A stretch of 64,000 nucleotides of DNA from an uncultured Clostridia bacterium (lineage in GTDB: Bacteria; Bacillota; Clostridia; TANB77; CAG-508). Below, piece after piece: positions 5,376-48,243 of this stretch (positions are counted from its first letter, which is position 1; each line of letters starts with the position of its first letter). The notes below the pieces were generated by a model, which was not told where the DNA came from, searched no databases, and was given only the letters and a program-made list of their open reading frames with translations. Both the position numbers and the translations under genes were made by a program. The stretch covers positions 34,752 to 98,751 of the forward strand of contig CAKPCF010000002.1 in assembly GCA_934141445.1 (NCBI GenBank). Direction: 5' to 3'.

Positions 5376-5406
5376 ATAAAAAATGGAGCTTTAAGCTCCA
5401 TTTTTT
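5376..5406. terminator. bidirectional rho-independent terminator
   Basis: aaaaaa-TGGAGCT-tta-AGCTCCA-tttttt, with stems at 5384-5390 and 5394-5400. Lies between convergent genes. Confidence 0.75.
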
Positions 5407-19983: not shown

Positions 19984-22900
19984 ATGAATGAATATGCATT
20001 AAAAATATTGGAAATAATTGAAACAAAATGGAAGCAAAGAAATAAATTTAAAGATAATTGCAAGGTATTATTACCTAAAATAGTTTTTTTGAATAATATG
20101 TATTATTTAGCTTATCCAATAGTTATAGAAAGTGAAGATTTTAAATATGAATTAAAAGACTGGATATATCAAGAATTGAAAAATCTAAGATTGCAGTTTT
20201 CTTTGAAAGACGAAAATGACTATATTGGAAAAATAGATATCAACAAAGATACTATAAAAAATTTATTTTCAAATGAGATATTAGATAAATTTTCAGATTT
20301 ATATAAGTATATTGCAACAATATTAACAAGCAAGAATAATAAAAAAATAGAAGATAATAAATTACAATTGCTAATAAATGAATATAATCTAGGATTAGAT
20401 GAAATTTCACAAAGATTAGTGTTGAAAATTTATAAAAAAGATGAATTAAAAGAAGAAAATGAAATTGATGAAACATCAAATAAAGTTGAAATTAGCAAAC
20501 AAAAAAGTGAAATAAAAGAAATCGATGATAAATATTCAAAAGAAACAAAGCAAATATTGGAAGATATTAAAGTTTTAGAAAACCTAGAAAAAGTTGATTA
20601 TAATTTTGAGTGGAATTTAGTGAGTGGATTAAGATTTGCTTCACTTGATTTTATTGAATTATGTATCACATTACTAAAAAAAGGTGAGTTTTCAGTAGAG
20701 CAGATTGTAGAAAATGATAGAAAAAAAATTAAAATCTTGACTAAAATAGGGGTATTATGTAATACAAGATTTTCTGAAGAGAAAATGGATGATGTAATTT
20801 TAAAAGAAAAAATTGAAAAAGGTGAGTTCATAAGTATAGCAAAAGGTTCGTTTATTTCTGAACCTGAAGCCTATGAAAATTTTTTGTGTGTAAAATGTAA
20901 ATTTAGTAAATGTCCTAAATTTTATGCAGGATATATCTTATATCTAAGAAACAAAGGTTTATTAGAAGATGTTTTAAAAGATAGAGAAGAATATAGAAGA
21001 AATACTTTTGAAAGTGATCTTTTTACAATTAAATGGGAAGTAAAAGATGGTGTAAAGAAGATTCCTAAAAAAACTTTTGACATAGCTTTAACTTTACTTG
21101 AAAATGATATGGTATTTGTTAATCAAATAATTAACCAAGATAAAAAGCTTTTATTTAGAATATTTTTACCTTTTTCTTGTAATACATATAAATTTATTTC
21201 AGATAGCATAGATGAAATATTAAAATATAAAAATGTGCATCCTAATGATTGGAGATATGTAACAAGAGCAAATGATAAATTACTATATAAGTGTGACATT
21301 TGGAGCTGTGCAATGCCTTATTGCATATTTGACGTTGCAGGATATCTTTTTTATTTGAAAAAAACTGGACAATTAAATAAAATTGATGAAGATAGAAAAT
21401 ATTATGAAGAACATAAGGATGAAATTGAAAGAGAAGCGGAGCAAGAACAAAAGGAACAATTACTCAAATTTGAAGAAGAATCAAAGCAAAAAAGGGAACG
21501 TGAAATTAAAAAAATATTAGAATACAAAAATAAGTCTGAAAATATTGAGCAATTAGTAGAAAAAATAAGCACTGAAAATGGATTACATATTACTATTGAA
21601 GGGGAAAGAGGTACTGGAAAAACAGAACTTGCAAATAGAGTTTGTGAATTATTAAAAGCATATAATAAAATTGATAATAGTACACCAGAATATTTAAGCA
21701 TTCATAATTTGGCTTTTAAAAATACATACGAATATTTGGAAATGCCTAATACTACAACTTGGAATGTAAAAGAACTTTCAATGCATAATAAACATTTATA
21801 TGTTTTAAGTGATATAAAAGAATTTATTGAAGAATATAAACACGTAAAAAAAATGAATAATGTTAGTTACTTAGGATTAAAAAGAATTAACAGAGTAATA
21901 GACTTAATCACATCTTTATTTGATGAAAACTATATTATTTTATGCTCAGATAGAAAATCAATTGATGAATTTTTAGCATTAGATTCGAAAATAAAATTTG
22001 TATATCAAAATAATAGATATGAGATTTCAAATTTACCAATTGATATTTTATTTGACGTATATTGTCAAAACTTGAATAAAGATTTGATTTTAAAATTAAG
22101 AAATGATAAGGCTCTTAAAGAAAATGTAAAAAATAAATTTATTGAATATGTGAGTATAAATGCAGAATTTTTCCCATTTCAAAATGAAGAATTAGCTAAA
22201 TATTTGGCAAATTATAGCATAAGTAAAAAAGATTTTATTATGCCGGATAATATTTATAGAAGGGAAACTGTTGATGAGAGTTTAGATAAAATAATAGGAT
22301 TAAACACTGTAAAGAAAAAAATTAAAGAATTTGAAAAATATGCATTATATACAGTAAAAGCTAAAAACTTAGGGCTAAAAATGAACAAATCAAATTTACA
22401 CATGATATTTACTGGAAATCCTGGAACTGGAAAAACAACTATAGCAAGAATTATGGCAAAAATGCTATATGATTTAGGCTTAGTATCTGAAAACAAATTG
22501 GTTGAAGTTGAAAGAAAAGATTTAGTCGCAAGTTACATTGGACAAACTGCACCAAAGACAGCAGAAGTAGTTGAAAAAGCACTGGGAGGAGTATTATTTA
22601 TTGATGAAGCATATACTTTAGCACAAGGGAATAAATCTGGAAATGATTTTGGAGCAGAAGCAGTTGCAACTTTAATCAAAGCAATGGAAGACCATAAAGA
22701 TGATTTAGTTGTTATATTTGCAGGATATAAAGATGAAATGAAAACATTTTTGGATATAAATCCAGGAATAGCGTCAAGAATTGGATATACTTTTAATTTT
22801 GAAGATTATACTAGTGACGAATTACTAGAAATGTTTTTTATGAAAATGGATAATATGGGATATTCTTTAAAAGAGAATATAAATAAAGATTTGTCTAAAA

Positions 22901-24426
22901 TTTTTGAATATTTTATTAAAAGAAAAAATTTCGGAAATGGTCGTTTTGTAGACAAACTAATTCAAGAAGTCGTTATGAAGCATGCTTTAAGAGAAACGAC
23001 AGATATACGAGAAATTACAATAGAAGATATTCCAACAATAGAAGATTTAAATAATGTAAATTATACTAATTATGATGCAAACCAAATGCTTGAAAAATTA
23101 GTAGGATTACAAGAATTAAAGAAAAAAATAAAAGAATTTGAGAATTATATAAAATTTTTAAAGAAAGCTGAAGAGCAAAACTTATCTATACCAATTCAAA
23201 ATTTGCATATGATATTTACTGGAAATCCTGGAACTGGAAAAACAACAGTAGCAAGGATTATTGCCAAAATTTTATTTGATTTAGGTATAATTCATGAAAA
23301 TAAATTAGTTGAAGTTGAAAGAAAAGACTTGATTGCTGGATATGTTGGACAAACCGCAATTAAAACTTCAGAAGTAATTGAAAAGGCAATGGGAGGAGTA
23401 TTATTTATTGATGAGGCATATACTTTAGCCCAAGGGAATAAATCCGGAAATGATTTTGGAGCAGAGGCAGTTGCAACTTTAATTAAAGCAATGGAAGATC
23501 ATAAGGATAATTTGATTGTTATTTTTGCAGGATACAAGGAAGAAATGGGAGAATTTTTAAACATAAATCCAGGTATTTCATCAAGGATTGGTTATATATT
23601 TGATTTTCCAGACTATACTGATGCTGAATATTGTGAAATATATTATAGAAAGTTGACTGCATTGGGATTAAACATTGAGGAAAGTGCAAAAAAAGATGTA
23701 AAAAAAGTTATGAAGTATTTTTGCAATGTAGAAAATAATGGTAATGGTAGATTTGTAGATAAAGTTGTACAAAATACTTTATTAAAATTGGCTACTAAAC
23801 AAGGTGATATTACAATTGTTACTAGTGATTGTGTGCCATCAATTCAAGAGATGACTAAAAATATGTTTGCTGGAGAAAGAATGATAAATCCAGAATTTAT
23901 AGATGAAGATTCTCAAAGACGAACTGCAATTCATGAAATTGGGCATGCTACTATAAGATATGTATTAGAGAAAACACCTGGAATTAAGAAGATTACAATA
24001 AATGCTGAAGGAACAGGCAGTTTAGGATATGTTGAATACAATAATTCTAATTTTAAATATACATCAAGTAAAAATCAATATTTGAATAGAATATGTGGAC
24101 TTTTGGGTGGTATGTGTAATGAAATTGTTTATTTAGGAGAGCATGAATCAGGTAATAGTAGTGATTTAAATAAAGCATCTAATATTGTAAAAAATATGAT
24201 TACAAGATATGGAATGTCAAGTTTGGGATTGTATACATTTCCTAATGAGAATGATATAGATAAATATATATATGAAGAAGCAAATAAAATACTTTCTGAA
24301 TGTTATGAAAAAACTATTCAAATTTTAAATAAAAATAAAGAGAAAACTCAAAAAGCAATTGAATATCTAATTGAAAAGAAGGAAATAGACGAGGAACAAT
24401 TTTTGAAAATTATGAAGGAAGCATAA
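19984..24426 (+). CDS. 1480-aa multidomain protein: Cys-rich duplicated N-terminal region + degenerate P-loop + two SpoVK/CbbX-type AAA+ modules + C-terminal FtsH-like M41 peptidase
   Basis: LHMIFTGNPGTGKTT(I/V)ARI...GGVLFIDEAYTL occurs twice. ITIEGERGTGKTELANR is an earlier P-loop. HEIGHA Zn motif at 23932-23946, followed by LGGMCNEIVYLGE...SDLNKASNIVKNMITRYGMS. No TM segment seen. Confidence 0.7.
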   Translation: MNEYALKILEIIETKWKQRNKFKDNCKVLLPKIVFLNNMYYLAYPIVIESEDFKYELKDWIYQELKNLRLQFSLKDENDYIGKIDINKDTIKNLFSNEILDKFSDLYKYIATILTSKNNKKIEDNKLQLLINEYNLGLDEISQRLVLKIYKKDELKEENEIDETSNKVEISKQKSEIKEIDDKYSKETKQILEDIKVLENLEKVDYNFEWNLVSGLRFASLDFIELCITLLKKGEFSVEQIVENDRKKIKILTKIGVLCNTRFSEEKMDDVILKEKIEKGEFISIAKGSFISEPEAYENFLCVKCKFSKCPKFYAGYILYLRNKGLLEDVLKDREEYRRNTFESDLFTIKWEVKDGVKKIPKKTFDIALTLLENDMVFVNQIINQDKKLLFRIFLPFSCNTYKFISDSIDEILKYKNVHPNDWRYVTRANDKLLYKCDIWSCAMPYCIFDVAGYLFYLKKTGQLNKIDEDRKYYEEHKDEIEREAEQEQKEQLLKFEEESKQKREREIKKILEYKNKSENIEQLVEKISTENGLHITIEGERGTGKTELANRVCELLKAYNKIDNSTPEYLSIHNLAFKNTYEYLEMPNTTTWNVKELSMHNKHLYVLSDIKEFIEEYKHVKKMNNVSYLGLKRINRVIDLITSLFDENYIILCSDRKSIDEFLALDSKIKFVYQNNRYEISNLPIDILFDVYCQNLNKDLILKLRNDKALKENVKNKFIEYVSINAEFFPFQNEELAKYLANYSISKKDFIMPDNIYRRETVDESLDKIIGLNTVKKKIKEFEKYALYTVKAKNLGLKMNKSNLHMIFTGNPGTGKTTIARIMAKMLYDLGLVSENKLVEVERKDLVASYIGQTAPKTAEVVEKALGGVLFIDEAYTLAQGNKSGNDFGAEAVATLIKAMEDHKDDLVVIFAGYKDEMKTFLDINPGIASRIGYTFNFEDYTSDELLEMFFMKMDNMGYSLKENINKDLSKIFEYFIKRKNFGNGRFVDKLIQEVVMKHALRETTDIREITIEDIPTIEDLNNVNYTNYDANQMLEKLVGLQELKKKIKEFENYIKFLKKAEEQNLSIPIQNLHMIFTGNPGTGKTTVARIIAKILFDLGIIHENKLVEVERKDLIAGYVGQTAIKTSEVIEKAMGGVLFIDEAYTLAQGNKSGNDFGAEAVATLIKAMEDHKDNLIVIFAGYKEEMGEFLNINPGISSRIGYIFDFPDYTDAEYCEIYYRKLTALGLNIEESAKKDVKKVMKYFCNVENNGNGRFVDKVVQNTLLKLATKQGDITIVTSDCVPSIQEMTKNMFAGERMINPEFIDEDSQRRTAIHEIGHATIRYVLEKTPGIKKITINAEGTGSLGYVEYNNSNFKYTSSKNQYLNRICGLLGGMCNEIVYLGEHESGNSSDLNKASNIVKNMITRYGMSSLGLYTFPNENDIDKYIYEEANKILSECYEKTIQILNKNKEKTQKAIEYLIEKKEIDEEQFLKIMKEA

Positions 24427-26884: not shown

Positions 26885-26959
26885 GGCCCCTTGGTCAAGC
26901 GGCTAAGACGTCACCCTCTCAAGGTGAAATCATGGGTTCGATTCCCGTAGGGGTCACCA
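26885..26959 (+). tRNA. tRNA-Glu (anticodon CUC)
   Basis: Cloverleaf read by eye: acceptor GGCCCCT/AGGGGTC, anticodon stem TCACC/GGTGA with loop CT-CTC-AA (anticodon at 26918-26920), T-arm ATGGG-TTCGATT-CCCGT, encoded CCA. The overall sequence form matches Firmicute tRNA-Glu. Confidence 0.85.
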
Positions 26960-31664: not shown

Positions 31665-31867
31665 CAAAAATAAAATGATAAGTGTATAAGGCTGAAAACA
31701 AGCATTTTAAAGCATTTTGATGTGAGTACATTTGAAATAAAAAGTAAGAAAATGTAAAAAGTACTTAAAAATATAAATACATGAGTAAAAAAAGTGAAAA
31801 AAATGATGAAACCTTGATGTACCAATGTGTACAAGTTGAAAAATAAGCATAAATTCAACTTTGAGAT

Positions 31868-31896
31868 TTGAAAAATAAAAATAAACTGTGTATACT
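31868..31896 (+). promoter_or_regulatory. candidate sigma-A promoter upstream of the MutS-like ORF
   Basis: TTGAAA, 17 nt spacer, TATACT. AT-rich background makes false positives likely. Confidence 0.35.
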
Positions 31897-31965
31897 AATA
31901 GTGATTTGAAAATTATGGCCATATAAAATACAACAAAATTTAATACAAAACAAAAAGGAAATGGA

Positions 31966-32403
31966 ATGGGAAAACATAACTCAAAATTTGAAAAATTTAA
32001 AGAATTAAAGTTTTTAAATCCGAATAAATTGTACATATTTGAGAATGGAGTTTTCTATATAACTTATAATGAAGATGCAGACAAAATGAAAGAAGTATTT
32101 GGCTTTGTAGTTAAGCAAATGGGAAGTATATATAGAAAATGTGAATTTCCAGTACAATATTTTGAAAGATATGAAAAAGCTTTGAAACTAAAGAAAATTG
32201 ACTATGAAGTAGTAGCAGTAACTAAGAAAAAGAAGAAGATAACAGCTGATGAACTAGACACTCAACATAGTGAATGTAGTAACTTGATGCATCTAGAAAT
32301 TCTTCAGATAATTCAAAAAGCAGATTTATCAAAAATAACACCAATTCAAGCTATGAATATTTTATTAGAAATGCAAAATAGAGTAAAAAATTCCAAACTC
32401 TAG
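31966..32403 (+). CDS. MutS-domain-I-like mini-protein (DGR-adjacent, MSL-like)
   Basis: 145 aa. LYIFENGVFYITYNEDADKMKEVFGF...CEFPVQYFERYEKALKLKKIDYEVVAV parallels this window's own MutS N-terminus (ILFYRIGDFYEMFYDDALVASREL...[27 protein letters not shown]). The tail LSKITPIQAMNILLEMQNRV parallels the MutS C-terminus LNELTPIDALNTLAKMKEML. No ATPase domain. Confidence 0.55.
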   Translation: MGKHNSKFEKFKELKFLNPNKLYIFENGVFYITYNEDADKMKEVFGFVVKQMGSIYRKCEFPVQYFERYEKALKLKKIDYEVVAVTKKKKKITADELDTQHSECSNLMHLEILQIIQKADLSKITPIQAMNILLEMQNRVKNSKL

Positions 32404-32465
32404 AACTGTAATTAAAAGCTATTGGTAAAAAAGATAACAAAAAGTAAAAAATATGAAATAAAAAA

Positions 32466-32516
32466 CCTTAAGTGTAGAAATTATAAATACTTTAATTTCT
32501 GTACTTAAGGTTTTTT
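32466..32516 (+). terminator. strong rho-independent terminator after the MutS-like ORF
   Basis: 17-bp stem CCTTAAGTGTAGAAATT / AATTTCTGTACTTAAGG (two G-U pairs), 11-nt loop, then T6. Confidence 0.8.
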
Positions 32517-32815
32517 ATTATTTACTAAAATTCTAACATTGAGCCAGTTTAAAGTCAATATAAAAATATAAAAAGTTGAAAAATATCAGTTTTTTTGTTC
32601 GACAAAAATTGCAAAAATATTGAGTTTTCAACGATTTTGCCCACTTCAATTCTTCCTTAAGTACAGAACTTAACGAAGGATAGAGGTGGTTTTCCCTCTA
32701 GCAAGCAAGACTTTCCGAATAAATTGTATATGCAATTTATTGTGTTTTGTTTTTATGGATTTTTGGAGAAAGGCCTACCCCTTTCTCCAACTTAAATTAT
32801 ACAGAGGAGGAAAAA

Positions 32816-33565
32816 ATGATGAAAAGAAAATTAGAAATTACTTTATTTATCTTTTTAGTAGTGATAGCGGTTTTAACAATAAATAGTGAAGCAGCTTATC
32901 AATCAAGACCAGGTTTTTCAGCTTTAGTAAATACAACATCAAATAGCTTTTTTGAAAATATAAGAAAAATGGAATCTAAAGATGGTCCTATGGGATTAAG
33001 TGCAGAATTTACAGTTACTGATACAGAAGTAAAAGAAACAACAGCATCAAATAATATAGATGTCCATATGATAAAAAATTCTGAATGGGGTGCAGCAGTT
33101 CTTCTTGCAGCATCTGGATATGGTGCAGGAACAGATGGTGAAGCAGGAACATATACAACAGGTTCTAGTAATTATACAGGAATTTACGGTATGGGAAATG
33201 GCAACTGGGAATATACAGCTAGTTATTGTGTACAAGGTGGTTCTACAGCTACAGGAAATTCAAATGTTAGAAGCATATTACATAGCTATGCTAATAGTAA
33301 TTCAAAGTATGTAGATGTATATAGAAATCCAAATAACCAGGTAACGGCAGATTATGATACTTTTGCTAGTAAGAACAATCACATCAAAGGTGATGCACTA
33401 GTTGAAGTTATGGGCTTACACAGCGGCAATTTGTACCTTGTTACTACGGACGTTCCCGTATTCGTACGTGGCAGCGGTGGTGTCTTTGCTTTCTATAGGT
33501 ACTTTGGTTATGGCGACAGCTACTTCACTTCGCGTGCGGTGGCTGTGTGCGGAGCTGGACTTTAA
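32816..33565 (+). CDS. secreted DGR variable (target) protein, C-type-lectin/FGE-like fold inferred
   Basis: ATG at 32816, 5 nt after GAGGAGG; the track ORF start at 32747 lacks an RBS. Signal peptide MMKRKLEITLFIFLVVIAVLTINSEA. Motifs NSEWGAAVLLAASG, GIYGMGNGNWEY and VFVRGSGGVF resemble the EWEYAARGG / GLxDMxGNVWEW / RGGSW blocks of FGE-type DGR targets. The last 47 codons are the VR. Confidence 0.85.
   Translation: MMKRKLEITLFIFLVVIAVLTINSEAAYQSRPGFSALVNTTSNSFFENIRKMESKDGPMGLSAEFTVTDTEVKETTASNNIDVHMIKNSEWGAAVLLAASGYGAGTDGEAGTYTTGSSNYTGIYGMGNGNWEYTASYCVQGGSTATGNSNVRSILHSYANSNSKYVDVYRNPNNQVTADYDTFASKNNHIKGDALVEVMGLHSGNLYLVTTDVPVFVRGSGGVFAFYRYFGYGDSYFTSRAVAVCGAGL
33422..33561 (+). repeat. DGR variable repeat (VR)
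   Basis: 140 bp, offset exactly 201 nt from TR. 125 of 140 positions are identical and all 15 differences lie opposite TR adenines. The 3' 48 bp are invariant and GC-rich. Confidence 0.92.
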
Positions 33566-33571
33566 GCACTG

Positions 33572-33613
33572 CACCTTGTGATTTGAGAGGCGTGTAGAAA
33601 TTCAAATCAGGTG
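33572..33613 (+). other. hairpin immediately 3' of VR (candidate DGR target-recognition stem-loop)
   Basis: CACC-ttg-TGATTTGA ...15 nt... TCAAATCA-GGTG. Starts 11 nt after the VR end. Confidence 0.5.
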
Positions 33614-33622
33614 TTACACTGA

Positions 33623-33762
33623 AGCGGCAATAAGAACCTTGTTACTACGGACAATCCCGTATTCGTACGTGGCAGCGGTGGTGTCTTTGCTTTCAATAGG
33701 AACAATGGTAATAGCAACAGCAACAACACTTCGCGTGCGGTGGCTGTGTGCGGAGCTGGACT
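33623..33762 (+). repeat. DGR template repeat (TR)
   Basis: Non-coding copy of VR. In the VR frame it reads SGNKNLVTTDNPVFVRGSGGVFAFNRNNGNSNSNNTSRAVAVCGAGL, with the AAY-rich codon usage typical of TRs. Confidence 0.92.
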
Positions 33763-33785
33763 CTTGTGTGAAGGTTTTATTTTCT

Positions 33786-33817
33786 AAAAATTTTACTTAT
33801 TTATAAGTAAAATTTTT
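33786..33817 (+). terminator. A/T-rich 14-bp hairpin downstream of TR (terminator-like)
   Basis: AAAAATTTTACTTA-ttta-TAAGTAAAATTTTT. Confidence 0.4.
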
Positions 33818-34082
33818 AAAAGTAATTATAGTGATTTTCATAATAATATAAATTTTAAAATTCGCAGTTTAATATTTAGTAATATATGAAAAAATAAATG
33901 GACCTAAATTTCTTTAATTATGAAAATAAAAGATTTAGGTGGAGCAAAGTTTAAGGACTTTACTGATTAGATTTTTCACACACAAAAGAAGTGTAATTCC
34001 TTCCTTTTTGGTAAAAATTTGAAAGGAGTAGTACAATGCAAGTAAAGGAAACTTGAAAGTGATGTACACATAATTAAATAAA

Positions 34083-34442
34083 ATGGCTAAACAAGATACA
34101 AGATTGATTATATACGAAAGATTAGTAGATTTAATTTTTTATTCTAAAAATTTATTAAAAAAATTTCCAAAATCTGAAAGATTTGATTTATGTGCAGACA
34201 TAAAACAAGCTTTATACAAAGTATTAAGATTAGTAATGTATTCTTGGAAAGAGAAAGATATTGAACAAAGATATCAAAATTTAAAAGAAGCAGATATAGA
34301 AATTTATGTATTAAAAACATTAACAAGATTGTCTTATATGGATAGATATATTACAGAACAAAACTATATGACATGGAATAATCACCTTTCTGAAATAGGA
34401 AAGATGTTAGGTGGGTGGATAAAAACATGTCAAAAAGGGTAA
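34083..34442 (+). CDS. avd: Avd-like accessory variability determinant (four-helix-bundle / 23S rRNA-IVS protein family)
   Basis: 119 aa. LIIYERLVDLIFYSKNLLKKFPKSERFDLCADIKQALYKVLRLV matches the FPK.ER signature of the family. Overlaps the RT start. Confidence 0.8.
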   Translation: MAKQDTRLIIYERLVDLIFYSKNLLKKFPKSERFDLCADIKQALYKVLRLVMYSWKEKDIEQRYQNLKEADIEIYVLKTLTRLSYMDRYITEQNYMTWNNHLSEIGKMLGGWIKTCQKG

Positions 34443-35464
34443 ATAATATATTTTTACAAAAGATAAAATTTAAAAATATATATGCCGCATATAGAAGAGC
34501 ATCAATTCTAAAACATAAAAATAGAGAAGTGATACTGTTTGAAATGGACTTAGCTCAAAATTTATATGATATATTAAAAGATTTATATTTTCAAAGGTAT
34601 AAGCCAGGAATATATCGAAAATTTGTTGTATATGAACCTAAAAGAAGAGAAATAATGTCACTTCCATTTAGAGACAGAGTTGTTCAACAATGGTATGTGG
34701 AAGAATTTATAAGACCAATTTTTATTCCAAAATTGATAGTAGATACTTATGCTTGTATTCCAGGTAGAGGCTTACATCATGCAATTCATAAACTACAATA
34801 TTATATGCAAAAAATGAAAAAAGAAAATGAAGATTTTTATATTTTAAAATGTGATGTTGCAAAATTTTTTAACAATATTCATAAAGATATTTTATATGAA
34901 ATTATAGAAAGAAAAATAAAAGATAAATATTTTTTAGAGTGTACGAAGCATATTTTATTTGATGGAACTTATAAAGTTGGAATACCAATTGGAAATTATA
35001 CTTCACAATTTTTTGCAAATATATATTTGAATGAACTAGACCATTTTGTTAAAGAAAAATTAAAAATTAAATATTATGTTAGATATATGGATGATTTTAT
35101 ATTATTGCTTCCTAATAAAGAAAAGGCTATTGAAATAAGAAAAGAAATAGAAAGCTTTTTAGATACAAGATTAAAATTAGCATTAAATAGAAAAACAAAT
35201 TATTTTAAAAATAAACAAGGAGTAAGTTTTTGTGGGTATCATATTTATGTTCACAAAATTGTTTTACTAAATCAAAACAAAAAGAAAATATACAAAAGAG
35301 TAAAGCATTGGAATGAATTATATGCGAAGGGTGAATTAGATATGTTTGAAGCAGCACAAAGCTTAATAGCATGGATAGGACATGCTAGTGCAGCAGATTC
35401 TTACGAATATATAAATAAGATAAAAAACAAATGTGATTGGTATTACAAAGGAGATATAAAATGA
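34427..35464 (+). CDS. DGR-type reverse transcriptase
   Basis: Motifs RREIMSLPFRDRVVQ, CIPGRGLHHA, LKCDVAKFFNNI, the DGR-diagnostic IGNYTSQFFANIYLNELD, YVRYMDDFILL and GVSFCGYHI. Start is ATG 34427 (or GTG 34415), inside the avd 3' end. Confidence 0.9.
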   Translation: MSKRVNNIFLQKIKFKNIYAAYRRASILKHKNREVILFEMDLAQNLYDILKDLYFQRYKPGIYRKFVVYEPKRREIMSLPFRDRVVQQWYVEEFIRPIFIPKLIVDTYACIPGRGLHHAIHKLQYYMQKMKKENEDFYILKCDVAKFFNNIHKDILYEIIERKIKDKYFLECTKHILFDGTYKVGIPIGNYTSQFFANIYLNELDHFVKEKLKIKYYVRYMDDFILLLPNKEKAIEIRKEIESFLDTRLKLALNRKTNYFKNKQGVSFCGYHIYVHKIVLLNQNKKKIYKRVKHWNELYAKGELDMFEAAQSLIAWIGHASAADSYEYINKIKNKCDWYYKGDIK

Positions 35465-37953
35465 AAGGAAAGAAGGCTAAATTAAGCAATCATCAAGGAA
35501 TCACTCTTATCGCTTTAGTTATTACAATAATAATTATGTTGATTTTAGCAGGAATAAGTTTAAATGCAACGATAGGTGATAATGGAATTATTAGTAAGGC
35601 AAGAGAAGCTAAGTTTAAACAAGCTTTGTCTTCATATAAAGAACAAGCAGATGCTTATGTATTAAATTACAATATGAATAATGACATTGGAATTGGTGAA
35701 GAGTCTACTTTATATTCAGGAGCACTTCGAGAAGCTGGAAAAGAAAATGACACTACTGGAATATACAATGATATATATACGAAGCATTTTAAGGATTTAA
35801 AGAAACTATCAGAAGGTTCTAGTACTGGAACAATTTCAAATACTAGCATTGATGAAGTGATTCCAGATATGGAAAATTACTATAAAAAACATGTTGGCGT
35901 TGAAAATGGAACTATGATGTGGTTTGCTGAAAAAAGAGATGATGAAGAGGTACAATGGGCTTTGGAACTTGGTGTATCAGTATTTATCGAAGGTGTAGGA
36001 AAGGTTTTACCAGATGGAAGCTATCAAATATATTCAAAGGGTGAATATGCAAATACAATGGGAACTTCTGGTACATATTGTGCAGAGCCAGATTTAACAG
36101 GCTTTAACACAGCAACAACATATTACATTGAATATGAATCAGATAATCAAAGCAGTAACTCTGGAAACCCAATTTATTTAAATGTACCAGATAATTGGTA
36201 TGACTATGGTAATCAAAGATGGGCAAATATTGCAACAGTTAATGACTGTCAAATGACATATTGGACATGGATACCAAGATATGTTTATAAAGTAGATGGA
36301 AATTCAATTGATTGTAAATTTGTAAATACATCTAATGTTTGTATTGGTACAGATGGACTTGAAATTGATGTTTCAGACTATATTTTACCAAGTGCATTTA
36401 CATTTGATGGAAAAGAACTTTCTGGAATTTGGGTAAGCAAATATGAAATATCAGAACCAGTACATCCAACAGGATTTTCTGCTACAACAGATAAAGACAG
36501 TATAACAATTCAAAGTGTTACTACAATTGGCTCAAGTACACCAGGTGGAGAAAATCCAATCGGAAAAGATGTAGAAATACATATAAGTGGAAATGGATTT
36601 GATAAAACAATTTCACATGTTGATTTACCATATAAAATTGAAGGTTTGTCACCAGATAAAACATATAAAGTTGAAGTTGAGACACCTACATTTTATGAAT
36701 CTAGAATGACTTTATCAAGAGAACTTACAACACCAGAAGGTACTGTAAATGAAATTGCAAATCCAGACTTTACAGGATTTAATACAGACACTACATATTT
36801 TCTTGAATATGAAGAGGACAATAAAACAGCAAAAATTGGAGAAAAAGTTCAAACAACAGTTGATTCAATTGATACATCAAAATTAGTTGCATCAAATGCT
36901 CCAACAAATTGGTATGATTATACAAAAAAAAGATGGGCAAATATTGCTACAATGACATCTGATGGTAAAGTTGCATATTGGACTTGGGTTCCAAGATATA
37001 AGTATAAAGTTATCGAATCAGATGATACAGTAGATTGTATTTTTGTAAGTAAGAGCAAAACAAATTCTTTATTAGGTTCATTAACTGATAAATATGTAAT
37101 TCCATCAGCATTTACTTGGGATAGCAAAGAACTTTCTGGAATATGGGTTCTAAAATATGAAGTTACTCTTGCAAAAGAACCAACAAGTTTTGTTGTACAA
37201 GCAGGTTCTAATGAAATAAAAATAACAAGTGTTTCATACACAGGTTCAGGAGGAAATTTACCAACTGATGGATATACATTGAATGTTACTGACAAAGCAA
37301 CAAATAGCAAAGTAATAAATAATTCAAGTATAAGTATTGGTTCAAATGGATACACAATTACAGGTTTGTCTGCTGGACATACTTATGATATAGAGCTAAC
37401 AGCCCCAATGGTATATAATGATGCAAATGGCAGTAAGCAATATAAGAAATTGACCAGAACTGTTTCAACAATAGGAAATGGTGAAGGTACAGCTAATGTG
37501 CCAAATTTAGATGGATTCAGTAAAGAAAATACATATTATGTTGTATATAGTAGTAATAAGCAAAAAGCTTTATTAGGAGATAAAGTTGAATATGATTCAA
37601 ACGGTAATCCTACAAATGCTCCAACAGACTGGTATGATTATGGCGCAAAGAGTTGGGCAAATATTGTTACAATTACAGCAGATGAAGGTAAGAATTTGAA
37701 TTTGACAAAAGGTATGGAAATTGGCTCAATAAATACAACATATTCAAAGATGGCTATGTTTGTTTGGGTACCTAGATATGAATATAAAGTAGATGAAACT
37801 TCTGATTCAACAGATATAATATTTATTTCAGCTAGTAAGAAAAATGCAGATAGCGGATATACAATTCCATCAGCATTTACTTGGGGAGACAAGGAACTTT
37901 CAGGGTATTGGGTATCTAAATATGAAGTGACAGAAATAAATAATGAGAATTAA
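35461..37953 (+). CDS. 830-aa pilin-like-anchored surface protein with three repeat modules separated by FN3-like spacers
   Basis: The ATG overlaps the RT stop (ATGA, 35461-35464) and follows the RBS AAAGGAG. N-terminus MKGKKAKLSNHQG/ITLIALVITIIIMLILAGISL is prepilin-like: Gly at -1, but no Phe at +1 and no Glu at +5. The module ...NWYDYxxxxWANI..T...YWTW(I/V)PRYxYKV...D(C/I)xF(V/I)...IPSAFTWxxKELSGxWVSKYE(I/V) occurs three times (36085-36453, 36763-37167, 37501-37932). Confidence 0.7.
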   Translation: MKGKKAKLSNHQGITLIALVITIIIMLILAGISLNATIGDNGIISKAREAKFKQALSSYKEQADAYVLNYNMNNDIGIGEESTLYSGALREAGKENDTTGIYNDIYTKHFKDLKKLSEGSSTGTISNTSIDEVIPDMENYYKKHVGVENGTMMWFAEKRDDEEVQWALELGVSVFIEGVGKVLPDGSYQIYSKGEYANTMGTSGTYCAEPDLTGFNTATTYYIEYESDNQSSNSGNPIYLNVPDNWYDYGNQRWANIATVNDCQMTYWTWIPRYVYKVDGNSIDCKFVNTSNVCIGTDGLEIDVSDYILPSAFTFDGKELSGIWVSKYEISEPVHPTGFSATTDKDSITIQSVTTIGSSTPGGENPIGKDVEIHISGNGFDKTISHVDLPYKIEGLSPDKTYKVEVETPTFYESRMTLSRELTTPEGTVNEIANPDFTGFNTDTTYFLEYEEDNKTAKIGEKVQTTVDSIDTSKLVASNAPTNWYDYTKKRWANIATMTSDGKVAYWTWVPRYKYKVIESDDTVDCIFVSKSKTNSLLGSLTDKYVIPSAFTWDSKELSGIWVLKYEVTLAKEPTSFVVQAGSNEIKITSVSYTGSGGNLPTDGYTLNVTDKATNSKVINNSSISIGSNGYTITGLSAGHTYDIELTAPMVYNDANGSKQYKKLTRTVSTIGNGEGTANVPNLDGFSKENTYYVVYSSNKQKALLGDKVEYDSNGNPTNAPTDWYDYGAKSWANIVTITADEGKNLNLTKGMEIGSINTTYSKMAMFVWVPRYEYKVDETSDSTDIIFISASKKNADSGYTIPSAFTWGDKELSGYWVSKYEVTEINNEN

Positions 37954-37962
37954 GGTGAATTT

Positions 37963-38217
37963 ATGCAAAAAGTAATTGAATTTATAAAAGAAAATAAAAA
38001 AATTGTAATTATTATATGTATTTTATTGGTTGTAGTATTTTCTATTGTAAAAATAAACAAGAAAAAGAGAATATCTGAAAATATAGCAAAAGAAAATGAG
38101 CAATTAAGAATTGAAGAAGAGGCAAGAAATAATAGACAATATAATTCTGATATGTTAGAAAATAATATAGAAGAAGATATTGGTACATCAGAAGATGATA
38201 TACAAATGTTCAATTAA
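37963..38217 (+). CDS. small single-pass membrane protein
   Basis: 84 aa, TM segment IVIIICILLVVVFSIV, acidic tail. Last gene before the terminator. Confidence 0.5.
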   Translation: MQKVIEFIKENKKIVIIICILLVVVFSIVKINKKKRISENIAKENEQLRIEEEARNNRQYNSDMLENNIEEDIGTSEDDIQMFN

Positions 38218-38224
38218 AATATAA

Positions 38225-38263
38225 AAAAGAAGGTGGTAATTTAAAATGTTACCACCTATTTTT
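38225..38263. terminator. bidirectional terminator between the DGR block and sigK
   Basis: aaaaaaga-AGGTGGTAA-tttaaaatg-TTACCACCT-atttttt. Confidence 0.8.
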
Positions 38264-38961
38264 TATTCTTTAATTTCTTTAGCCAATTTTCCAATTGCCT
38301 TTGTTTCAATTCTTGAAACATAAGAGCGACTGATATCTAACATTTCTGCAATCTCTTTTTGAGTTTTAGGTTTATCACCTTTTAAACCAAATCTTAATTC
38401 AATTATAGTTTTTTCTCTATTTTTTAAAACTGTTTTAATTTTTTCATATAAATTTTTAACTTTTAATTTTAAATCTACCTCATCTTCAACATTTTTTTCA
38501 TTTATTTCAAGAATTTCTTGAAGAGTAACAACATTATCATCTTTATCTTTTCCAACTGGTTCATTTAGGAAAACTTCAGAATTTCTTTTTTTATTACTTC
38601 TTAGAAACATCAATATTTCGTTTTCAATACATCTTGCTGTATATGTAGCTAATTTTATATTTTTTTCTGTATTAAAACTATTGATTCCTTTTATTAAACC
38701 AATAGTACCAATTGAAATTAAATCATCAGCATCAATATTTGTATTATTGTATTTTTTTGCAATATGTGCAACTAATCTTAAATTATGTTCAATTAAAATA
38801 TTTCTAGCAGATTCACTACCAGATAACATTTCTTCTAAATACTTTTTTTCATCTTCAGCACTTAAAGGCTCTGGAAATAAACTACTGCTTTGAATATAGC
38901 CAAAACCAAAAATCATTTCAGACAGAAAATTCCAAAAAGTTTCTAATGTAAAGACAAGCAT
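38263..38961 (-). CDS. sigK: sporulation sigma factor K precursor (pro-sigma-K), uninterrupted
   Basis: Hydrophobic pro-sequence, then FPEPLSAEDEKKYLE...NILIEHNLRLVAHIAKKY...DLISIGTIGLIKGINSF...KLATYTARCIENEILMFLR...ISRSYVSRIE. Close to B. subtilis SigK as recalled from memory. Confidence 0.85.
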   Translation of the reverse strand: MLVFTLETFWNFLSEMIFGFGYIQSSSLFPEPLSAEDEKKYLEEMLSGSESARNILIEHNLRLVAHIAKKYNNTNIDADDLISIGTIGLIKGINSFNTEKNIKLATYTARCIENEILMFLRSNKKRNSEVFLNEPVGKDKDDNVVTLQEILEINEKNVEDEVDLKLKVKNLYEKIKTVLKNREKTIIELRFGLKGDKPKTQKEIAEMLDISRSYVSRIETKAIGKLAKEIKE

Positions 38962-39113
38962 TTAATCCCTCCTGTTTAAAAGCATACTAAAATATATGAA
39001 CTAAAGAATAAAAGTGTGCCTGACCGAGAGAAATAAAATATTTTAATTGGTTATTATTTGACTGGTAAAAATAAAAGTGATAAAATTTATAAGATTTGAT
39101 TGGAGGAATTGGT

Positions 39114-39278
39114 ATGTACGGAAAAATCAAAGATATGAGAAGATTAGAAGTAAAAATCAATAGAGGTGGAGAACTTGTATATTCTGGAAAAGTAGAAGAA
39201 GCACCAGAAGATATTAAAAATTTGAGTTATATATCAATAAAACTTGATGGTGGTATTGCAATATTGGAAATCGAATAG
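39114..39278 (+). CDS. small hypothetical protein (54 aa)
   Basis: ATG at 39114, 7 nt after the GGAGG RBS. Confidence 0.45.
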   Translation: MYGKIKDMRRLEVKINRGGELVYSGKVEEAPEDIKNLSYISIKLDGGIAILEIE

Positions 39279-39287
39279 AAAAATTCT

Positions 39288-40214
39288 ATGATAAAAAAGA
39301 GCTTTATTGAGGATAAGAATGGTGAAGAAATGGAAAAAGATATATTAAGAGAATGTACATTATGCCCAAGAAATTGCAAAGTTAATAGATATGAAAAAAT
39401 TGGAAGATGTGGGATGACAGTAAATATAAAAATTGCTTTAGCAGATTTACATTTTTATGAAGAACCTTGCATTAGTGGATTAAGTGGTTCTGGTGCAGTA
39501 TTCTTTTCTGGATGCAATTTAAACTGTGTTTATTGCCAAAATTATGAAATTAGTCAAGCAAAGAAAGGATATGAAATCTCTATTCAAGAATTAGCTGATA
39601 AGATGATTGAACTTCAAAATAAAGGAGCTAATAATATAAATTTAGTTACTGCGTTTAGTTTTGTACCACAAATAATAGAAGCAATTGATATTGCTAAAAA
39701 ACAAGGTTTTAATTTGCCAATAGTATATAATAGTAGTGGCTATGAAAGTATAGAAACAATAAAAATGCTTGCTGGATATGTAGATGTATATTTACCAGAT
39801 TTAAAATACTATTATAATGAACTTTCTAAAGATTTATCTAATGTAAATGATTATTTTGAAAAAGCATCAAAAGCTATTTTGGAAATGAAAAAGCAAGTAG
39901 GAAATCCAATATTTGATGAAGAAGGAATTATACAAAAAGGGATAATAGTAAGACATTTAGTGTTGCCAAATCATTTACAAAATACAAAAAGTATTTTAAA
40001 ATGGATAAAAAATAATTTAGGAAAAGATACATATTGTAGTATAATGGCACAGTATTTTCCTACATATAAAGCACTAGGTAAAGAAGATATAAATAGAAAG
40101 CTAAATGTAGAAGAATATGATGAAATAGAAAACTATGTATATAAATTGGGATTGAAAAATGGATATATGCAATATGTTGAAGAAAATGAAGAAAAATATG
40201 TTCCAAAATTTTAA
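39288..40214 (+). CDS. radical SAM protein, PflX-like (pyruvate formate-lyase activase homologue)
   Basis: FFSGCNLNCVYCQNYEIS (CxxxCxxC), with an upstream Cys-rich CTLCPRNCKVNR...RCG. Confidence 0.75.
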   Translation: MIKKSFIEDKNGEEMEKDILRECTLCPRNCKVNRYEKIGRCGMTVNIKIALADLHFYEEPCISGLSGSGAVFFSGCNLNCVYCQNYEISQAKKGYEISIQELADKMIELQNKGANNINLVTAFSFVPQIIEAIDIAKKQGFNLPIVYNSSGYESIETIKMLAGYVDVYLPDLKYYYNELSKDLSNVNDYFEKASKAILEMKKQVGNPIFDEEGIIQKGIIVRHLVLPNHLQNTKSILKWIKNNLGKDTYCSIMAQYFPTYKALGKEDINRKLNVEEYDEIENYVYKLGLKNGYMQYVEENEEKYVPKF

Positions 40215-40386: not shown

Positions 40387-40600
40387 AAGTTAAAAATAGT
40401 TAATAATCTTCCCTGCGTAGTGCGTGTAGAACTGATTTTTTAGAACCTACAAGTTTGGATAAGGGAGTCTGAGCTCTAGATATGGCGTGTATGCTTGCAT
40501 TTATGTAAGAAACCCAGGAGTATTTAGGAGGACACCCACCTGTATATATACAGGTCCATAAAAAATCTTCATCTTACGGCTTAGACGTGGGGCTTTTTTT
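40387..40600 (+). ncRNA. orphan structured small RNA (~200 nt), class unresolved (6S-like features)
   Basis: Non-coding and relatively GC-rich, ending in GGGGC-T7. Contains a perfect 18-nt palindrome ACCTGTATATATACAGGT (40538-40555) and a long-range 9-bp helix between 40467-40475 and 40578-40586. See the finding for this locus. Confidence 0.5.
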
Positions 40601-45627: not shown

Positions 45628-48243
45628 ATGCCAGAACAATTATCACCAATGATGCAAAGTTATTTAGCAACAAAGGAACAATACAAAGATTGCATCTTGT
45701 TTTATAGAATAGGAGATTTTTATGAAATGTTCTATGATGATGCTTTAGTCGCATCAAGAGAACTAGAAATTACATTAACTGGAAAAGCTTGTGGAACAGA
45801 GGAAAAAGCACCAATGTGTGGTGTTCCGTTTCATGCAGCAGAATTATATATTTCAAGACTTATATCAAAGGGATATAAAGTAGCAATTTGTGAGCAACTT
45901 GAAGATCCAAAACAGGCTAAAGGACTTGTGAAAAGAGATGTTATAAGAGTTGTTACACCAGGTACTGTTATAGAAACAAATATGCTAGAAGAAAAAAAGA
46001 ACAACTATATAATGGGAATTGTAAAAAAAGGATTATATTATGGTGTTGCTATTTGTGATATTAGTACAGGTGATTTTTATGCTACTCAAATTAAACTTGC
46101 AGACAATAATTTTGAAAAACTATTAGATGAATATGCTAGATATGTTCCAGCTGAAATTGTTGTAAATGAAGCTATGGGAATGTCAACAAAAGAATTAGAA
46201 ATAATGAAAGATAGAAACAATACATTTGTTACTATTAGAGAAGATAAATTTTTTAATGAAGATGATACAATACTTTTAAGATTATACAAAATGGAAGATG
46301 ACTTTGGTAAAGAGAAAACTGATTTGAAAAATGATAAAATTGCAGTACAAGCTATAAATGGATTATTAAATTATTTTTCAGAAACACAAAAAGTCAAACT
46401 TGAACATATAAATAGAATTAGATTATATGAAGTAAAGAAATTCATGGCATTAGATATAAATGCAAGAAGAAGTTTGGAACTTACTGAAAGAATGAGAGAT
46501 AAATCTAAAAGAGGAACTTTAATTTGGGTTTTAGATAAAACATCAACATCAATGGGAGGAAGACTTTTAAGAAGATGGATAAATGATCCTTTATTAGATG
46601 TAAAAGAAATTAACGATAGACTTGGAGCTGTTAAAGAATTTAAGAATAATGTAATGTTACGAGGTGAACTTGCTGAAATTCTAAAAAAAGTTTATGATAT
46701 TGAAAGATTAGCAGGAAAAATATCTTATGGCAATGCTAATGCAAGAGATTTAATCTCTCTTAAAAATTCACTTTCACATTTACCTGAATTAAAAGAACTT
46801 TTATCAATGGCAGAGTCAGATTTGCTTAAAAAAATATATTCAAATTTAGATGAATTAAAAGATATATTTGAGCTTATAGATGAAGCTATTGTTGAAGACC
46901 CACCAATAAGTATAAAAGAGGGTGGAATTATAAAAAGTGGATATTCACAAGATATTGATGAATATAGAGAAGCTTCAACAGATGGAAAAAGATGGATTGT
47001 TGAACTAGAAGCAAAGGAAAGAGAAGAAACTGGTATAAAAAATTTAAAAGTTGGATATACTAGAGTATTTGGATATTATATAGAAGTTACAAAATCTTTC
47101 CTAAATCAAGTTCCAGAAGGTAGATATGTAAGAAAGCAAACTTTAACTGGTGGTGAAAGATTTATAACTGAAGAATTAAAACAAATTGAAGGCAAAATAT
47201 TAGGTGCAGAAGAAAAGGTTGTTGCATTAGAATATAATGAGTTTACCAAAATAAGAGATGAAATTGGAAAAAATATAGCAAGACTTCAAACTTCAGCTTC
47301 AGCTATTGCGATGGCAGATGTATTAAATAGTTTAGCTATTGTAGCAGAAGATAATAATTATGTTTGCCCAGAAGTTGATGAATCTGGTGAGATTATAATA
47401 AAAGAAGGTAGACATCCTGTAATTGAACAAATGATTGATAGTGGAAGTTTTGTTCAAAATGATACATACTTAAACAAAGAAGAAAATAGAGTAGCAATTA
47501 TTACAGGTCCTAATATGGCTGGTAAATCAACATTTATGAGACAGGTTGCTTTAATTACTCTAATGGCTCAAATAGGTAGCTTTGTACCAGCAACTGAAGC
47601 AAAGATAGGAATTGTAGATAAAATCTTTACAAGAGTAGGGGCTTCTGATGATTTAAGTAGTGGTCAAAGTACATTTATGGTTGAAATGTCAGAAGTAGCT
47701 AATATATTAAAAGAGGCAACTCCAAATAGTTTAGTTATATTAGATGAAATTGGTAGAGGAACATCAACTTATGATGGACTATCAATAGCATGGGCTGTTG
47801 CAGAATATATTGCAGATAAAGAAAAAGTTGGCTGTAAAACTTTATTTGCAACACATTACCATGAACTTATAGAACTTGAAGATAAAATAGATGGAATTAA
47901 AAATTACTCTGTAGCTGTAAAAGAAAAAGGTGAAGATGTAATTTTCTTGAGAAAGATTATAGAAGGTGGAACAGATGAAAGCTATGGTATCCATGTTGCA
48001 AAACTTGCAGGTGTTCCAAAACAAGTAGTAACAAGAGCCAATAAGATTTTACAATCACTTGAAAAAGGTGGCGTTAAAGTTAAAGAAGAAAAAGAAGATA
48101 AAAAACAAGTTGAAGGTCAATTTGATTTCTTTAATATAACTTTAGCTAATATTGCTACTGAATTAGATAAGGTCAACTTAAATGAATTAACACCAATAGA
48201 TGCTTTAAATACTCTTGCTAAAATGAAAGAAATGTTAAAATAA
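45628..48243 (+). CDS. mutS: DNA mismatch repair protein MutS
   Basis: SPMMQSYL...GDFYEMF (Phe-x-Glu), Walker A ITGPNMAGKSTFMRQ, DEIGRGTSTYDG and TLFATHYHEL. Confidence 0.95.
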   Translation: MPEQLSPMMQSYLATKEQYKDCILFYRIGDFYEMFYDDALVASRELEITLTGKACGTEEKAPMCGVPFHAAELYISRLISKGYKVAICEQLEDPKQAKGLVKRDVIRVVTPGTVIETNMLEEKKNNYIMGIVKKGLYYGVAICDISTGDFYATQIKLADNNFEKLLDEYARYVPAEIVVNEAMGMSTKELEIMKDRNNTFVTIREDKFFNEDDTILLRLYKMEDDFGKEKTDLKNDKIAVQAINGLLNYFSETQKVKLEHINRIRLYEVKKFMALDINARRSLELTERMRDKSKRGTLIWVLDKTSTSMGGRLLRRWINDPLLDVKEINDRLGAVKEFKNNVMLRGELAEILKKVYDIERLAGKISYGNANARDLISLKNSLSHLPELKELLSMAESDLLKKIYSNLDELKDIFELIDEAIVEDPPISIKEGGIIKSGYSQDIDEYREASTDGKRWIVELEAKEREETGIKNLKVGYTRVFGYYIEVTKSFLNQVPEGRYVRKQTLTGGERFITEELKQIEGKILGAEEKVVALEYNEFTKIRDEIGKNIARLQTSASAIAMADVLNSLAIVAEDNNYVCPEVDESGEIIIKEGRHPVIEQMIDSGSFVQNDTYLNKEENRVAIITGPNMAGKSTFMRQVALITLMAQIGSFVPATEAKIGIVDKIFTRVGASDDLSSGQSTFMVEMSEVANILKEATPNSLVILDEIGRGTSTYDGLSIAWAVAEYIADKEKVGCKTLFATHYHELIELEDKIDGIKNYSVAVKEKGEDVIFLRKIIEGGTDESYGIHVAKLAGVPKQVVTRANKILQSLEKGGVKVKEEKEDKKQVEGQFDFFNITLANIATELDKVNLNELTPIDALNTLAKMKEMLK

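Follow-up and report, generated by a model that had tools for sequence, protein, structure and literature searches.

A diversity-generating retroelement with a MutS-like accessory gene, an RT-14-like RNA and a pilin-like neighbour in an uncultured Clostridia bacterium

The repeat pair and the retroelement genes

We analysed a stretch of 64,000 nucleotides (hereafter, the window) from an uncultured Clostridia bacterium (GenBank assembly GCA_934141445.1, contig CAKPCF010000002.1, positions 34,752 to 98,751 of the forward strand), which carries a diversity-generating retroelement (DGR). No natural system other than DGRs is known by which prokaryotes hypermutate proteins in a targeted way. Their density is highest in the human gut. 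Tens of thousands of them have been catalogued, especially from gut samples (PMC8144416). The core of the element lies on the plus strand and consists of a target gene that ends in a variable repeat (VR), a template repeat (TR), a structured RNA, the gene avd (accessory variability determinant) and a gene for a reverse transcriptase (RT). A gene for a MutS-like protein (MSL) precedes it, and genes for a pilin-like protein of 830 amino acids (aa) and for a small membrane protein follow. A reading made earlier from the sequence alone, here called the original prediction, had described a complete DGR at positions 32816-35464.

The VR (33422-33561, plus strand) and the TR (33623-33762, plus strand) align without gaps over 140 bp at a fixed offset of 201 nt. 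There are 15 mismatches, and at every one of them the TR base is A (12 A to T and 3 A to G). As the TR has adenine at 35 of its 140 positions, the hypergeometric probability of placing all 15 mismatches on A is 5.9e-11. The VR constitutes the final 47 codons of the target open reading frame (ORF, 32816-33565), the homology between the repeats ending 4 nt short of the stop codon. In the frame of this ORF, first codon positions account for 11 of the changes and second positions for the other four; third positions are unaffected, the four adenines that the TR has there being unaltered in the VR. Eleven codons differ from TR to VR: AAG>TTG, AAC>TAC, AAT>GTT, AAT>TAT, AAC>TAC, AAT>TTT, AAT>TAT, AGC>GGC, AAC>GAC, AAC>TAC and AAC>TTC. 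Codons of the type AAY (Y, pyrimidine) are abundant in the TR; adenine mutagenesis of such codons yields many residue types and no stop codon. The last 35 nt of the VR (33527-33561, plus strand) resemble the initiation of mutagenic homing (IMH) element of other DGRs. They are found exactly in the TR at 33728-33762 and have a G+C content of 65.7%, compared with 53% for the VR, 51% for the TR and 26.6% for the 64-kb window. Beyond this common end the flanks differ (...GGACTTTAAGCA after the VR, ...GGACTCTTGTGTG after the TR). Realignment and in-frame comparison thus reproduced what had been predicted for the repeats, namely the ungapped pair and its offset, the adenine-only mismatches, the exact list of codons, the position of the VR in the target gene and the invariant G+C-rich end in A+T-rich DNA.

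A-degenerate matching of the TR and BLAST revealed neither a remote VR nor additional copies of the TR or the 35-mer in the window. When the genome collection was scanned for exact 32-mers, only the VR and TR of a sister metagenome-assembled genome (MAG) matched. Within the scope of this searching, which is the window and the sister MAG, the remote VRs that the original prediction had proposed to look for were not found. A terminator scan of 32400-35600 did not find any. Upstream of the pair, faint homology (33611-33622 and 33412-33421) spans a 3-nt indel (GGGCTTACAC and GGTGTTACACTGA) and has differences at bases other than A. This homology is kept in the closest relative described below and probably dates from the original duplication, in a part that exchange no longer reaches.

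The avd gene (34083-34442, plus strand) encodes a protein of 119 aa that matches the curated equivalog model NF033474 (DivGenRetAVD) of NCBIfam with 93.2 bits (cut-off 80) and Pfam bAvd with an E-value of 1e-23. Overlapping its end, the RT gene (34427-35464, plus strand) encodes 345 aa. The top match of the RT in the PDB is the DGR RT of the Bordetella phage (bRT, 8ub7), with an E-value of 1.2e-43 over residues 1-328, versus 1e-19 for group II intron RTs, 1.6e-18 for chains described as retron-type RT and 7e-6 for named retron RTs. The expected motifs are present, with IGNYTSQFFANIYL at residue 188 and YMDD at residue 220, and the sequence IGNYTSQ, an instance of the [LIV]GxxxSQ motif, is aligned to IGSLTSQ of bRT. 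The scores against the NCBIfam models for group II intron, retron, Drt3a and AbiA proteins are all far under the respective cut-offs. Together with the bRT match, these cut-offs rule out a group II intron, retron or defence RT. Both genes are therefore what the original prediction had proposed, and the RT, judged by its best matches, does not fall with the retrons or group II introns, an outcome which that prediction had named as contrary to it.

Transfer from TR to VR in related loci

Relatives of the RT were sought in 185,579 species genomes, and the more than 377 matches were nearly all from MAGs of uncultured gut Clostridia and Bacilli. Among the 81 RT-related loci that were fetched, an automatic search detected A-biased repeat pairs in 50. 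The closest relative, a Hadza gut MAG (locus L001), encodes an RT that is 97% identical at the protein level, with about 91% identity for the DNA. In L001, 15 of 16 VR/TR mismatches are at A. Its TR differs from that of the window at 11 positions, and wherever one of the two TRs carries a base other than A, its own VR matches it. Since each VR follows its own TR at non-A positions, sequence has flowed from TR to VR after the lineages of L001 and the window split.

The variation among alleles gives the same picture. The 90%-identity protein cluster of the target has 51 members, of which 15 were aligned and 14, the sister alleles, were scored against the sister TR. Residues 1-204 are almost invariant in the aligned members and the C-terminus is hypervariable at discrete positions. 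In the sister alleles, variation affects 17 of the 22 codons whose first or second base is templated by A (mean of 4.45 residues), versus only 2 of the 24 remaining codons and 12 of the 201 positions upstream (Fisher p = 2.5e-6). Variation at positions not templated by A is thus far less frequent than variation at A-templated ones; similar rates were what the original prediction had considered incompatible with a DGR. The VR of the target is rewritten in one direction and specifically at adenines, at up to about 14 residues that are mostly encoded by AAY, and the scaffold of the protein is kept.

In a more distant relative, L089, avd and the RT gene have been lost, but both repeats persist, as does the first half of the RNA downstream of the TR. 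In this decayed DGR (7001-8100 of L089), VR and TR have 34 mismatches, of which 21 are at A, and the RT-14-like RNA ends after ...TAATTCC. The variable protein of L089 is identical on more than 80 contigs. This RT-less relative with its frozen VR is a natural negative control.

Two target proteins in the databases, P0009 (representing 27 sequences) and P0017, end in the unmutated TR followed by the translated downstream flank of the TR (...GAGLLCEV...). These ends are due either to collapse of the VR onto the TR during assembly or to real deletions between VR and TR.

A structured RNA downstream of the TR

The spacer between TR and avd contains a conserved element of about 140 nt, which we place at 33926-34077 (plus strand) and regard as a structured RNA on the basis of similarity to an Rfam family, covariation and position. 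It aligns with the full model of RT-14 (RF02921), whose architecture it has, with 36.4 bits and an E-value of 9e-4, which is under the gathering score of 48.1. Seven relatives exceed this gathering score, with the RNA at the homologous position. In an alignment of 14 sequences, 20 base pairs were predicted, 14 of them with compensatory changes. The proportion of paired cells is 92.9% versus 33-45% with slid partners, and none of 500 shuffles reached the observed values. A search with a model built from these RNA sequences found 42 sites. In all 36 sites with a detected TR the RNA is on the strand of the TR, at a median of 28 nt past its 3' end, and this arrangement holds irrespective of the position of avd and the RT gene. 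In the window and L001 the distance is longer (169-173 nt versus the median of 28 nt for the 36 loci) because of an A+T-rich insertion (33763-33925, plus strand), which is present in this lineage and its sister only and contains a 24-bp A+T hairpin (33778-33825).

Given the seven relatives above the gathering score and the covariation, the RNA of the window is related to RT-14 and probably works like it, but it is not a member by the curated cut-off. The RT-14 motif was described without an assigned function (Weinberg et al. 2017); the loci analysed here give it a fixed place, which is always just past the 3' end of a DGR template repeat and on the same strand. In BPP-1, the spacer RNA (Rfam RT-10) is located between TR and brt (PMC5737381), and by analogy the RNA described here can be considered its positional counterpart. 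A second RT-14-like RNA was seen at locus L062 (7121-7293, minus strand), just past the RT gene and 2.2 kb from the detected TR and its RNA. This locus may contain a second TR that was missed by the repeat screen.

The target protein and its pilin-like neighbour

The target gene (32816-33565, plus strand) encodes a protein of 249 aa, in which a signal peptide is followed by a divergent, lectin-like domain with the VR at its end. Cleavage is predicted after SEA at residue 26, at an AxA-type site between SEA and AYQ that is conserved in the family. Neither the target nor 21 relatives have a match in Pfam or NCBIfam, and the 356 homologues found by profile search (about 216-265 aa) are all without annotation. 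The AlphaFold (AF2) model, computed with an alignment of 96 sequences, has a mean predicted local distance difference test value (pLDDT) of 83 and a predicted template-modelling score (pTM) of 0.80; an earlier model from 21 sequences (pLDDT 52.7) was not used. The only sequence match in the PDB is TaqVP (5VF4), with an E-value of 0.019 over the helix VHMIKNSEWGA. TaqVP, which is also the best, though not a significant, structural match, shares with the target a VR at the C-terminus. TvpA and Mtd are other DGR variable proteins with a C-type-lectin fold. The target probably adopts a C-type-lectin fold as well, although this is not established.

The architecture of the target is explained by more distant loci, which encode variable proteins in one piece (570-780 aa). 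Their order is a prepilin-like N-terminus, a module that we call module M, a core (SHLMKNSEWGAVAYL..., TGNIYGIYDMSGGAWEYV) and the VR. Sub-threshold matches to FGE-sulfatase were found in four of five such proteins (E-values of 1e-4 to 9e-3) and to N_methyl in two of five (0.03 and 0.07). In the window, the gene downstream of the RT gene (35461-37953, plus strand) encodes the 830-aa protein, which has a prepilin-like N-terminus and three repeats of module M with fn3-like domains between them. Its start codon overlaps the stop codon of the RT gene (ATGA, 35461-35464), so that the two genes are coupled in translation. The N-terminus, QG followed by ITLIALVITIIIMLILAG, has Ala at position +5 where pilins have Glu. 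The prepilin motif tested was G-[FILMV]-[ST]-L-[ILV]-E with a hydrophobic helix (N_methyl or TIGR02532), and the protein matches neither of these models in Pfam or NCBIfam; its only Pfam match is fn3 (2.6e-5). No prepilin peptidase or pilus genes are present in the window.

Module M has the consensus ...WYDY..WANI.T...YWTW[IV]PRY.YKV...IPSAFT..GKELSG.WVSKYE. In BLASTP comparisons with the one-piece proteins, all three repeats of the 830-aa protein (about residues 215-330, 450-570 and 690-825) align individually with module M, for example with residues 244-394 of the protein of locus L068, and residues 31-242 of the target align with the part directly after it (394-664). The mature N-terminus of the target aligns exactly at the end of module M. 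This mapping of the two proteins indicates that, in the lineage of the window, a break in the linker that follows module M has divided the variable protein in two. In comparison with the C-type-lectin proteins of other DGRs, the target differs in that the N-terminal part of the domain is absent from it and present in three copies in the neighbouring protein, and in that it belongs to no Pfam family.

Members of the 830-aa family flank the DGR in 17 related loci. In addition, six further loci were picked on the sole basis of their homologue of the short protein; in all six, the neighbouring gene belongs to the 830-aa family, and in five of them RT, avd and TR are absent from the surrounding 6-7 kb. 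The presence of the pair at RT-less loci means that it exists independently of DGRs. Two large unannotated families, with at least 356 and at least 406 members, thus form a conserved gene pair, one of them being the DGR target, and it is only in the DGR-linked pairs that the small subunit undergoes diversification. We think it somewhat more likely than not that the small subunit, once mature, binds to module M of its 830-aa partner and thereby provides a variable binding surface at the cell exterior. One could object that the 830-aa protein is a mere neighbour and that the 249-aa protein functions by itself as a binding protein, either soluble or associated with the wall. Anatomy and sequence are the grounds for proposing an interaction, and the small protein carries its own signal peptide. 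However, a mere neighbour would account poorly for the overlap of the 830-aa start codon with the RT stop codon, for the adjacency of the two families at both the DGR loci and the target-selected loci, five of the latter being RT-less, and for the way in which both proteins jointly rebuild the one-piece domain order, the target starting where module M ends. We therefore judge this objection rather unlikely to be correct, and prefer the docking of the two proteins.

A MutS-like accessory protein

The MSL gene (31966-32403, plus strand) encodes 145 aa with MutS domain I (Pfam MutS_I, 6e-8, 33.3 bits, cut-off 20.6) and a tail like the C-terminus of MutS, without an ATPase. A profile of the family, made from 23 MSLs, matches Taq MutS (4e-6). 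In the alignment, GiFYi of MSL corresponds to GDFYE of MutS, so that the Phe that stacks on mismatches is retained and the Glu is lost. The final 36 or so residues resemble the extreme C-terminus of the host MutS (BLASTP E-value of 0.001, hhalign E-value of 7.6e-5). The full-length MutS of the host is encoded at 45628-48243 (NCBIfam, 1095 bits), 10 kb downstream of the DGR island. By these similarities, MSL combines both ends of MutS without the ATPase.

Homologues of MSL adjoin avd and the RT gene in 43 of 80 related loci. MSL is a known accessory of Architecture D DGRs (PMC5758913) and is also found in DGRs of Bacteroides, where deletion of mutS raises mutagenesis of the VR 5- to 10-fold (bioRxiv 10.1101/2024.11.15.621889). 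Since host MutS suppresses retrohoming in Bacteroides, an antagonist encoded by the cassette would make sense. MSL may possibly protect the mismatched retrohoming intermediate from host MutS, a proposal that we make tentatively.

Three assemblies of the same clone (junctions at L083:1828, L084:533 and L085:231) are 100% identical to the window from 32143 on and have unrelated sequence upstream, with the same junction in each; in L083 this sequence contains genes for L32p, MscL and phosphoketolase. With this junction, MSL would lose its mismatch-binding, N-terminal half. Either a subpopulation may have undergone a real rearrangement, or the junction may be a chimera that recurs.

Activity of the DGR in this clone

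We read the locus as an intact DGR that diversifies a lectin-like secreted protein. Several observations weigh against this reading. The exact target protein and VR of the window occur on 21 contigs from several assemblies, among which no diversification within this clone was seen at the consensus level, and seven loci that were examined match the window at 100% identity over 2-5.7 kb, a stretch that includes the VR and TR. As these loci represent one clone without measurable divergence, the identity of the VR neither proves nor excludes activity. The TR of the window lacks A's at three codons that are hypervariable in the sister lineage (AAA>GTA, AAC>AGC and AAT>GGT), and the insertion of about 165 nt lies between TR and RNA. 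The reduced TR and the insertion could lower activity; the sister lineage diversifies with the same insertion, which is thus tolerated. When the region 33550-33630 was folded as DNA and compared with shuffled sequences, no hairpin above background was found after the VR (z = -0.16). Such a hairpin is a feature of BPP-1 and is not universal among DGRs. Finally, a Foldseek search with the target model gave no significant match in the PDB or BFVD, the best being TaqVP with an E-value of 0.21 and a template-modelling (TM) score of 0.31.

The first of these points could mean that the DGR has recently been silenced in this strain, through weak expression, the insertion or the reduced TR, the VR having been written by past retrohoming and being now a fixed allele. 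Besides the VR shared by all 21 contigs and the loss of three hypervariable A codons, such silencing would fit the TR-RNA distance (169 nt versus the median of 28 nt), the junction that truncates MSL at 32143 in some assemblies of the same clone, and the existence of frozen relics such as L089 in the family. However, every gene is intact and there is no mismatch at a base other than A over 140 bp. The compared contigs are free of single-nucleotide polymorphisms throughout, as expected for one clone without time for divergence, and in the sister lineage, which has the same insertion, the VR is different in nearly every strain. Silencing is for these reasons rather unlikely in our opinion, and the DGR is probably still able to act in this clone. 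The description "recently active" in the original prediction is well founded for the lineage, given the 17 of 22 A-containing codons that vary in the sister alleles, and is not borne out for this clone by its identical VR.

Chromosomal setting of the island

In the window, the DGR island is inserted between recN, which ends at 31664, and sigK (38263-38961, minus strand). The next related species (L095, whose recN is 81% identical, L096 and L097) have the order ham1-recN-sigK-radical SAM-prmC with nothing between recN and sigK, and L002/L094 have the same island as the window. The uninterrupted recN-sigK and the shared insertion delimit a unit of about 6.6 kb (approximately 31665-38262, plus strand), with MSL, the target and its VR, TR, RNA, avd, RT, the pilin-like gene and an ORF of 84 aa. 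This last ORF (37963-38217, plus strand) encodes a small membrane protein at the right end of the island and has a counterpart with 43% identity at the same position in L094. The interval of the original prediction was thus too short for the element, leaving out MSL and the pilin-like gene, and the RNA had not been recognised. SigK passes its curated models, which makes the earlier designation of the organism as a spore-former plausible.

Many gut DGRs are phage-borne (PMC8144416), and the weak matches of the target in BFVD include tail-fibre proteins. A prophage DGR which, as in BPP-1, would diversify a receptor-binding tail protein for host-range switching is nevertheless very improbable here and was ruled out on gene context. 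The genes around the island are housekeeping genes and not phage genes, the island carries nothing beyond MSL, the target, avd, the RT, the pilin-like gene and the small ORF, the target has a signal peptide and its partner a pilin-like N-terminus, and the BFVD matches all have E-values of at least 0.8.

sigK is inverted in the window and L001; in L002/L094 and in the DGR-less relatives L095-L097, sigK and recN share a strand. A search for inverted repeats that could explain this flip gave only weak A+T-rich matches in 37900-39400. Elsewhere in the window, a protein of 1480 aa (19984-24426) combines several AAA+ ATPase modules with an M41 (FtsH-type) peptidase domain at its C-terminus, and is far longer than ordinary FtsH. 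An ORF of 1019 aa (13853-16912) has no match in Pfam or NCBIfam, and ORFs of 780, 311 and 398 aa (5405-7747 on the minus strand, 4147-5082 and 62240-63436, respectively) have none in NCBIfam. Matches at the Rfam gathering level are tmRNA (51646-51999), 6S RNA (40407-40597) and one tRNA (26885-26956), which is ordinary chromosomal content.

Discussion

The locus is very probably an intact, chromosomally domesticated DGR of the type with Avd and MSL. The DGR reading of the original prediction is upheld by the adenine-only mismatches, the matches of RT and Avd to known DGR proteins, the flow from TR to VR since the separation from L001 and the variation at A-containing codons. That the repeats are instead an ordinary duplication or gene-conversion tract, diverged by point mutation beside an unrelated RT of a group II intron, retron or defence system, is exceedingly improbable: the top NCBIfam model for the RT is a group II intron RT/maturase, but in a library without a model for DGR RTs and with 113 bits against a cut-off of 300, the DGR RT match (1e-43) is far better than those to the other classes, Rfam found no intron RNA, Avd is present, each VR tracks its own TR, and chance placement of all mismatches on A has a probability of 6e-11.

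With the prototype, the DGR of BPP-1 (mtd-avd-TR-brt), the element shares A-specific mutagenic retrohoming from TR to VR, homology of the RT to bRT over its full length, Avd, a VR at the 3' end of the target gene, a G+C-rich 3' end common to both repeats and a structured RNA just 3' of the TR (the RT-10 spacer in BPP-1; PMC5737381). It differs in being chromosomal and not phage-borne, in its order VR-TR-RNA-avd-RT, in the additional MSL, in an RNA that is RT-14-like, in having no hairpin after the VR and in its target, a secreted cellular protein instead of the tip of a tail fibre. DGRs with MSL, namely Architecture D of Wu et al. 2018 (with the Legionella DGR among them) and the Bfr/Bth/Bun elements of Bacteroides, likewise encode a small protein with MutS domain I together with avd and RT. 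In the window, however, MSL is upstream of the target gene and not directly before avd, and it has a tail that matches the C-terminus of host MutS, which we did not find described in the literature searched. The DGRs that diversify Type V pilus tip adhesins in Bacteroides (bioRxiv 10.1101/2024.11.15.621889) are also chromosomal elements of gut commensals with a variable domain associated with a pilus-type structure; they have Avd with or without Msl, and host MutS opposes retrohoming there. They belong to another phylum and another pilus class, the N-terminus of the 830-aa protein resembling a type IV prepilin signal (G followed by ITLIA), and the variable domain encoded in the window is a separate polypeptide and not a portion of the pilin.

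On this basis, the following mechanism can be proposed. The TR and the RT-14-like RNA would be transcribed as one RNA, as in BPP-1. A complex of Avd and RT would bind this transcript and copy the TR into complementary DNA (cDNA), misincorporating opposite template adenines; by analogy with BPP-1, cDNA synthesis may be primed from the structured RNA. The cDNA would then replace the VR, the common G+C-rich end of 35 nt serving, again as in BPP-1, as the 3' boundary of the exchange. MSL could shield the heavily mismatched intermediate from host mismatch repair. The target, a putative adhesin, would be the lectin-like, ligand-binding half of a one-piece pilin-like protein and would work with the co-transcribed 830-aa protein. 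A combined proposal, which is possible though less than an even bet, goes further: a one-piece protein would have been split into a pilin-like scaffold with three modules and a secreted subunit with the VR that docks in trans, with up to three subunits displayed, and MSL would be a mini-MutS, made of the mismatch-binding domain and the oligomerisation tail of MutS without the ATPase, acting as a decoy or dominant-negative toward host MutS and letting the mismatched retrohoming intermediate evade repair.

The kind of system is already known, and the interest of this locus comes from the assignment of RT-14, the two-ended MSL and the split, pilin-associated target. No description of these three features was found in the literature searched. 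In the same search, which was limited to one collection, no DGR linked to pseudopilins or prepilins was found. The locus represents no new mechanism; it provides a clear-cut case from an uncultured, very A+T-rich lineage of Clostridia about which little is known. It gives a genomic role to the orphan RT-14 motif, as an RNA located immediately after a DGR template repeat. Natural controls are available in this family, with DGR-bearing relatives whose VRs differ on the one hand and an RT-less relative with a frozen VR on the other. Finally, the two-ended MSL suggests a role against mismatch repair, which would match the suppression of retrohoming by MutS in Bacteroides.

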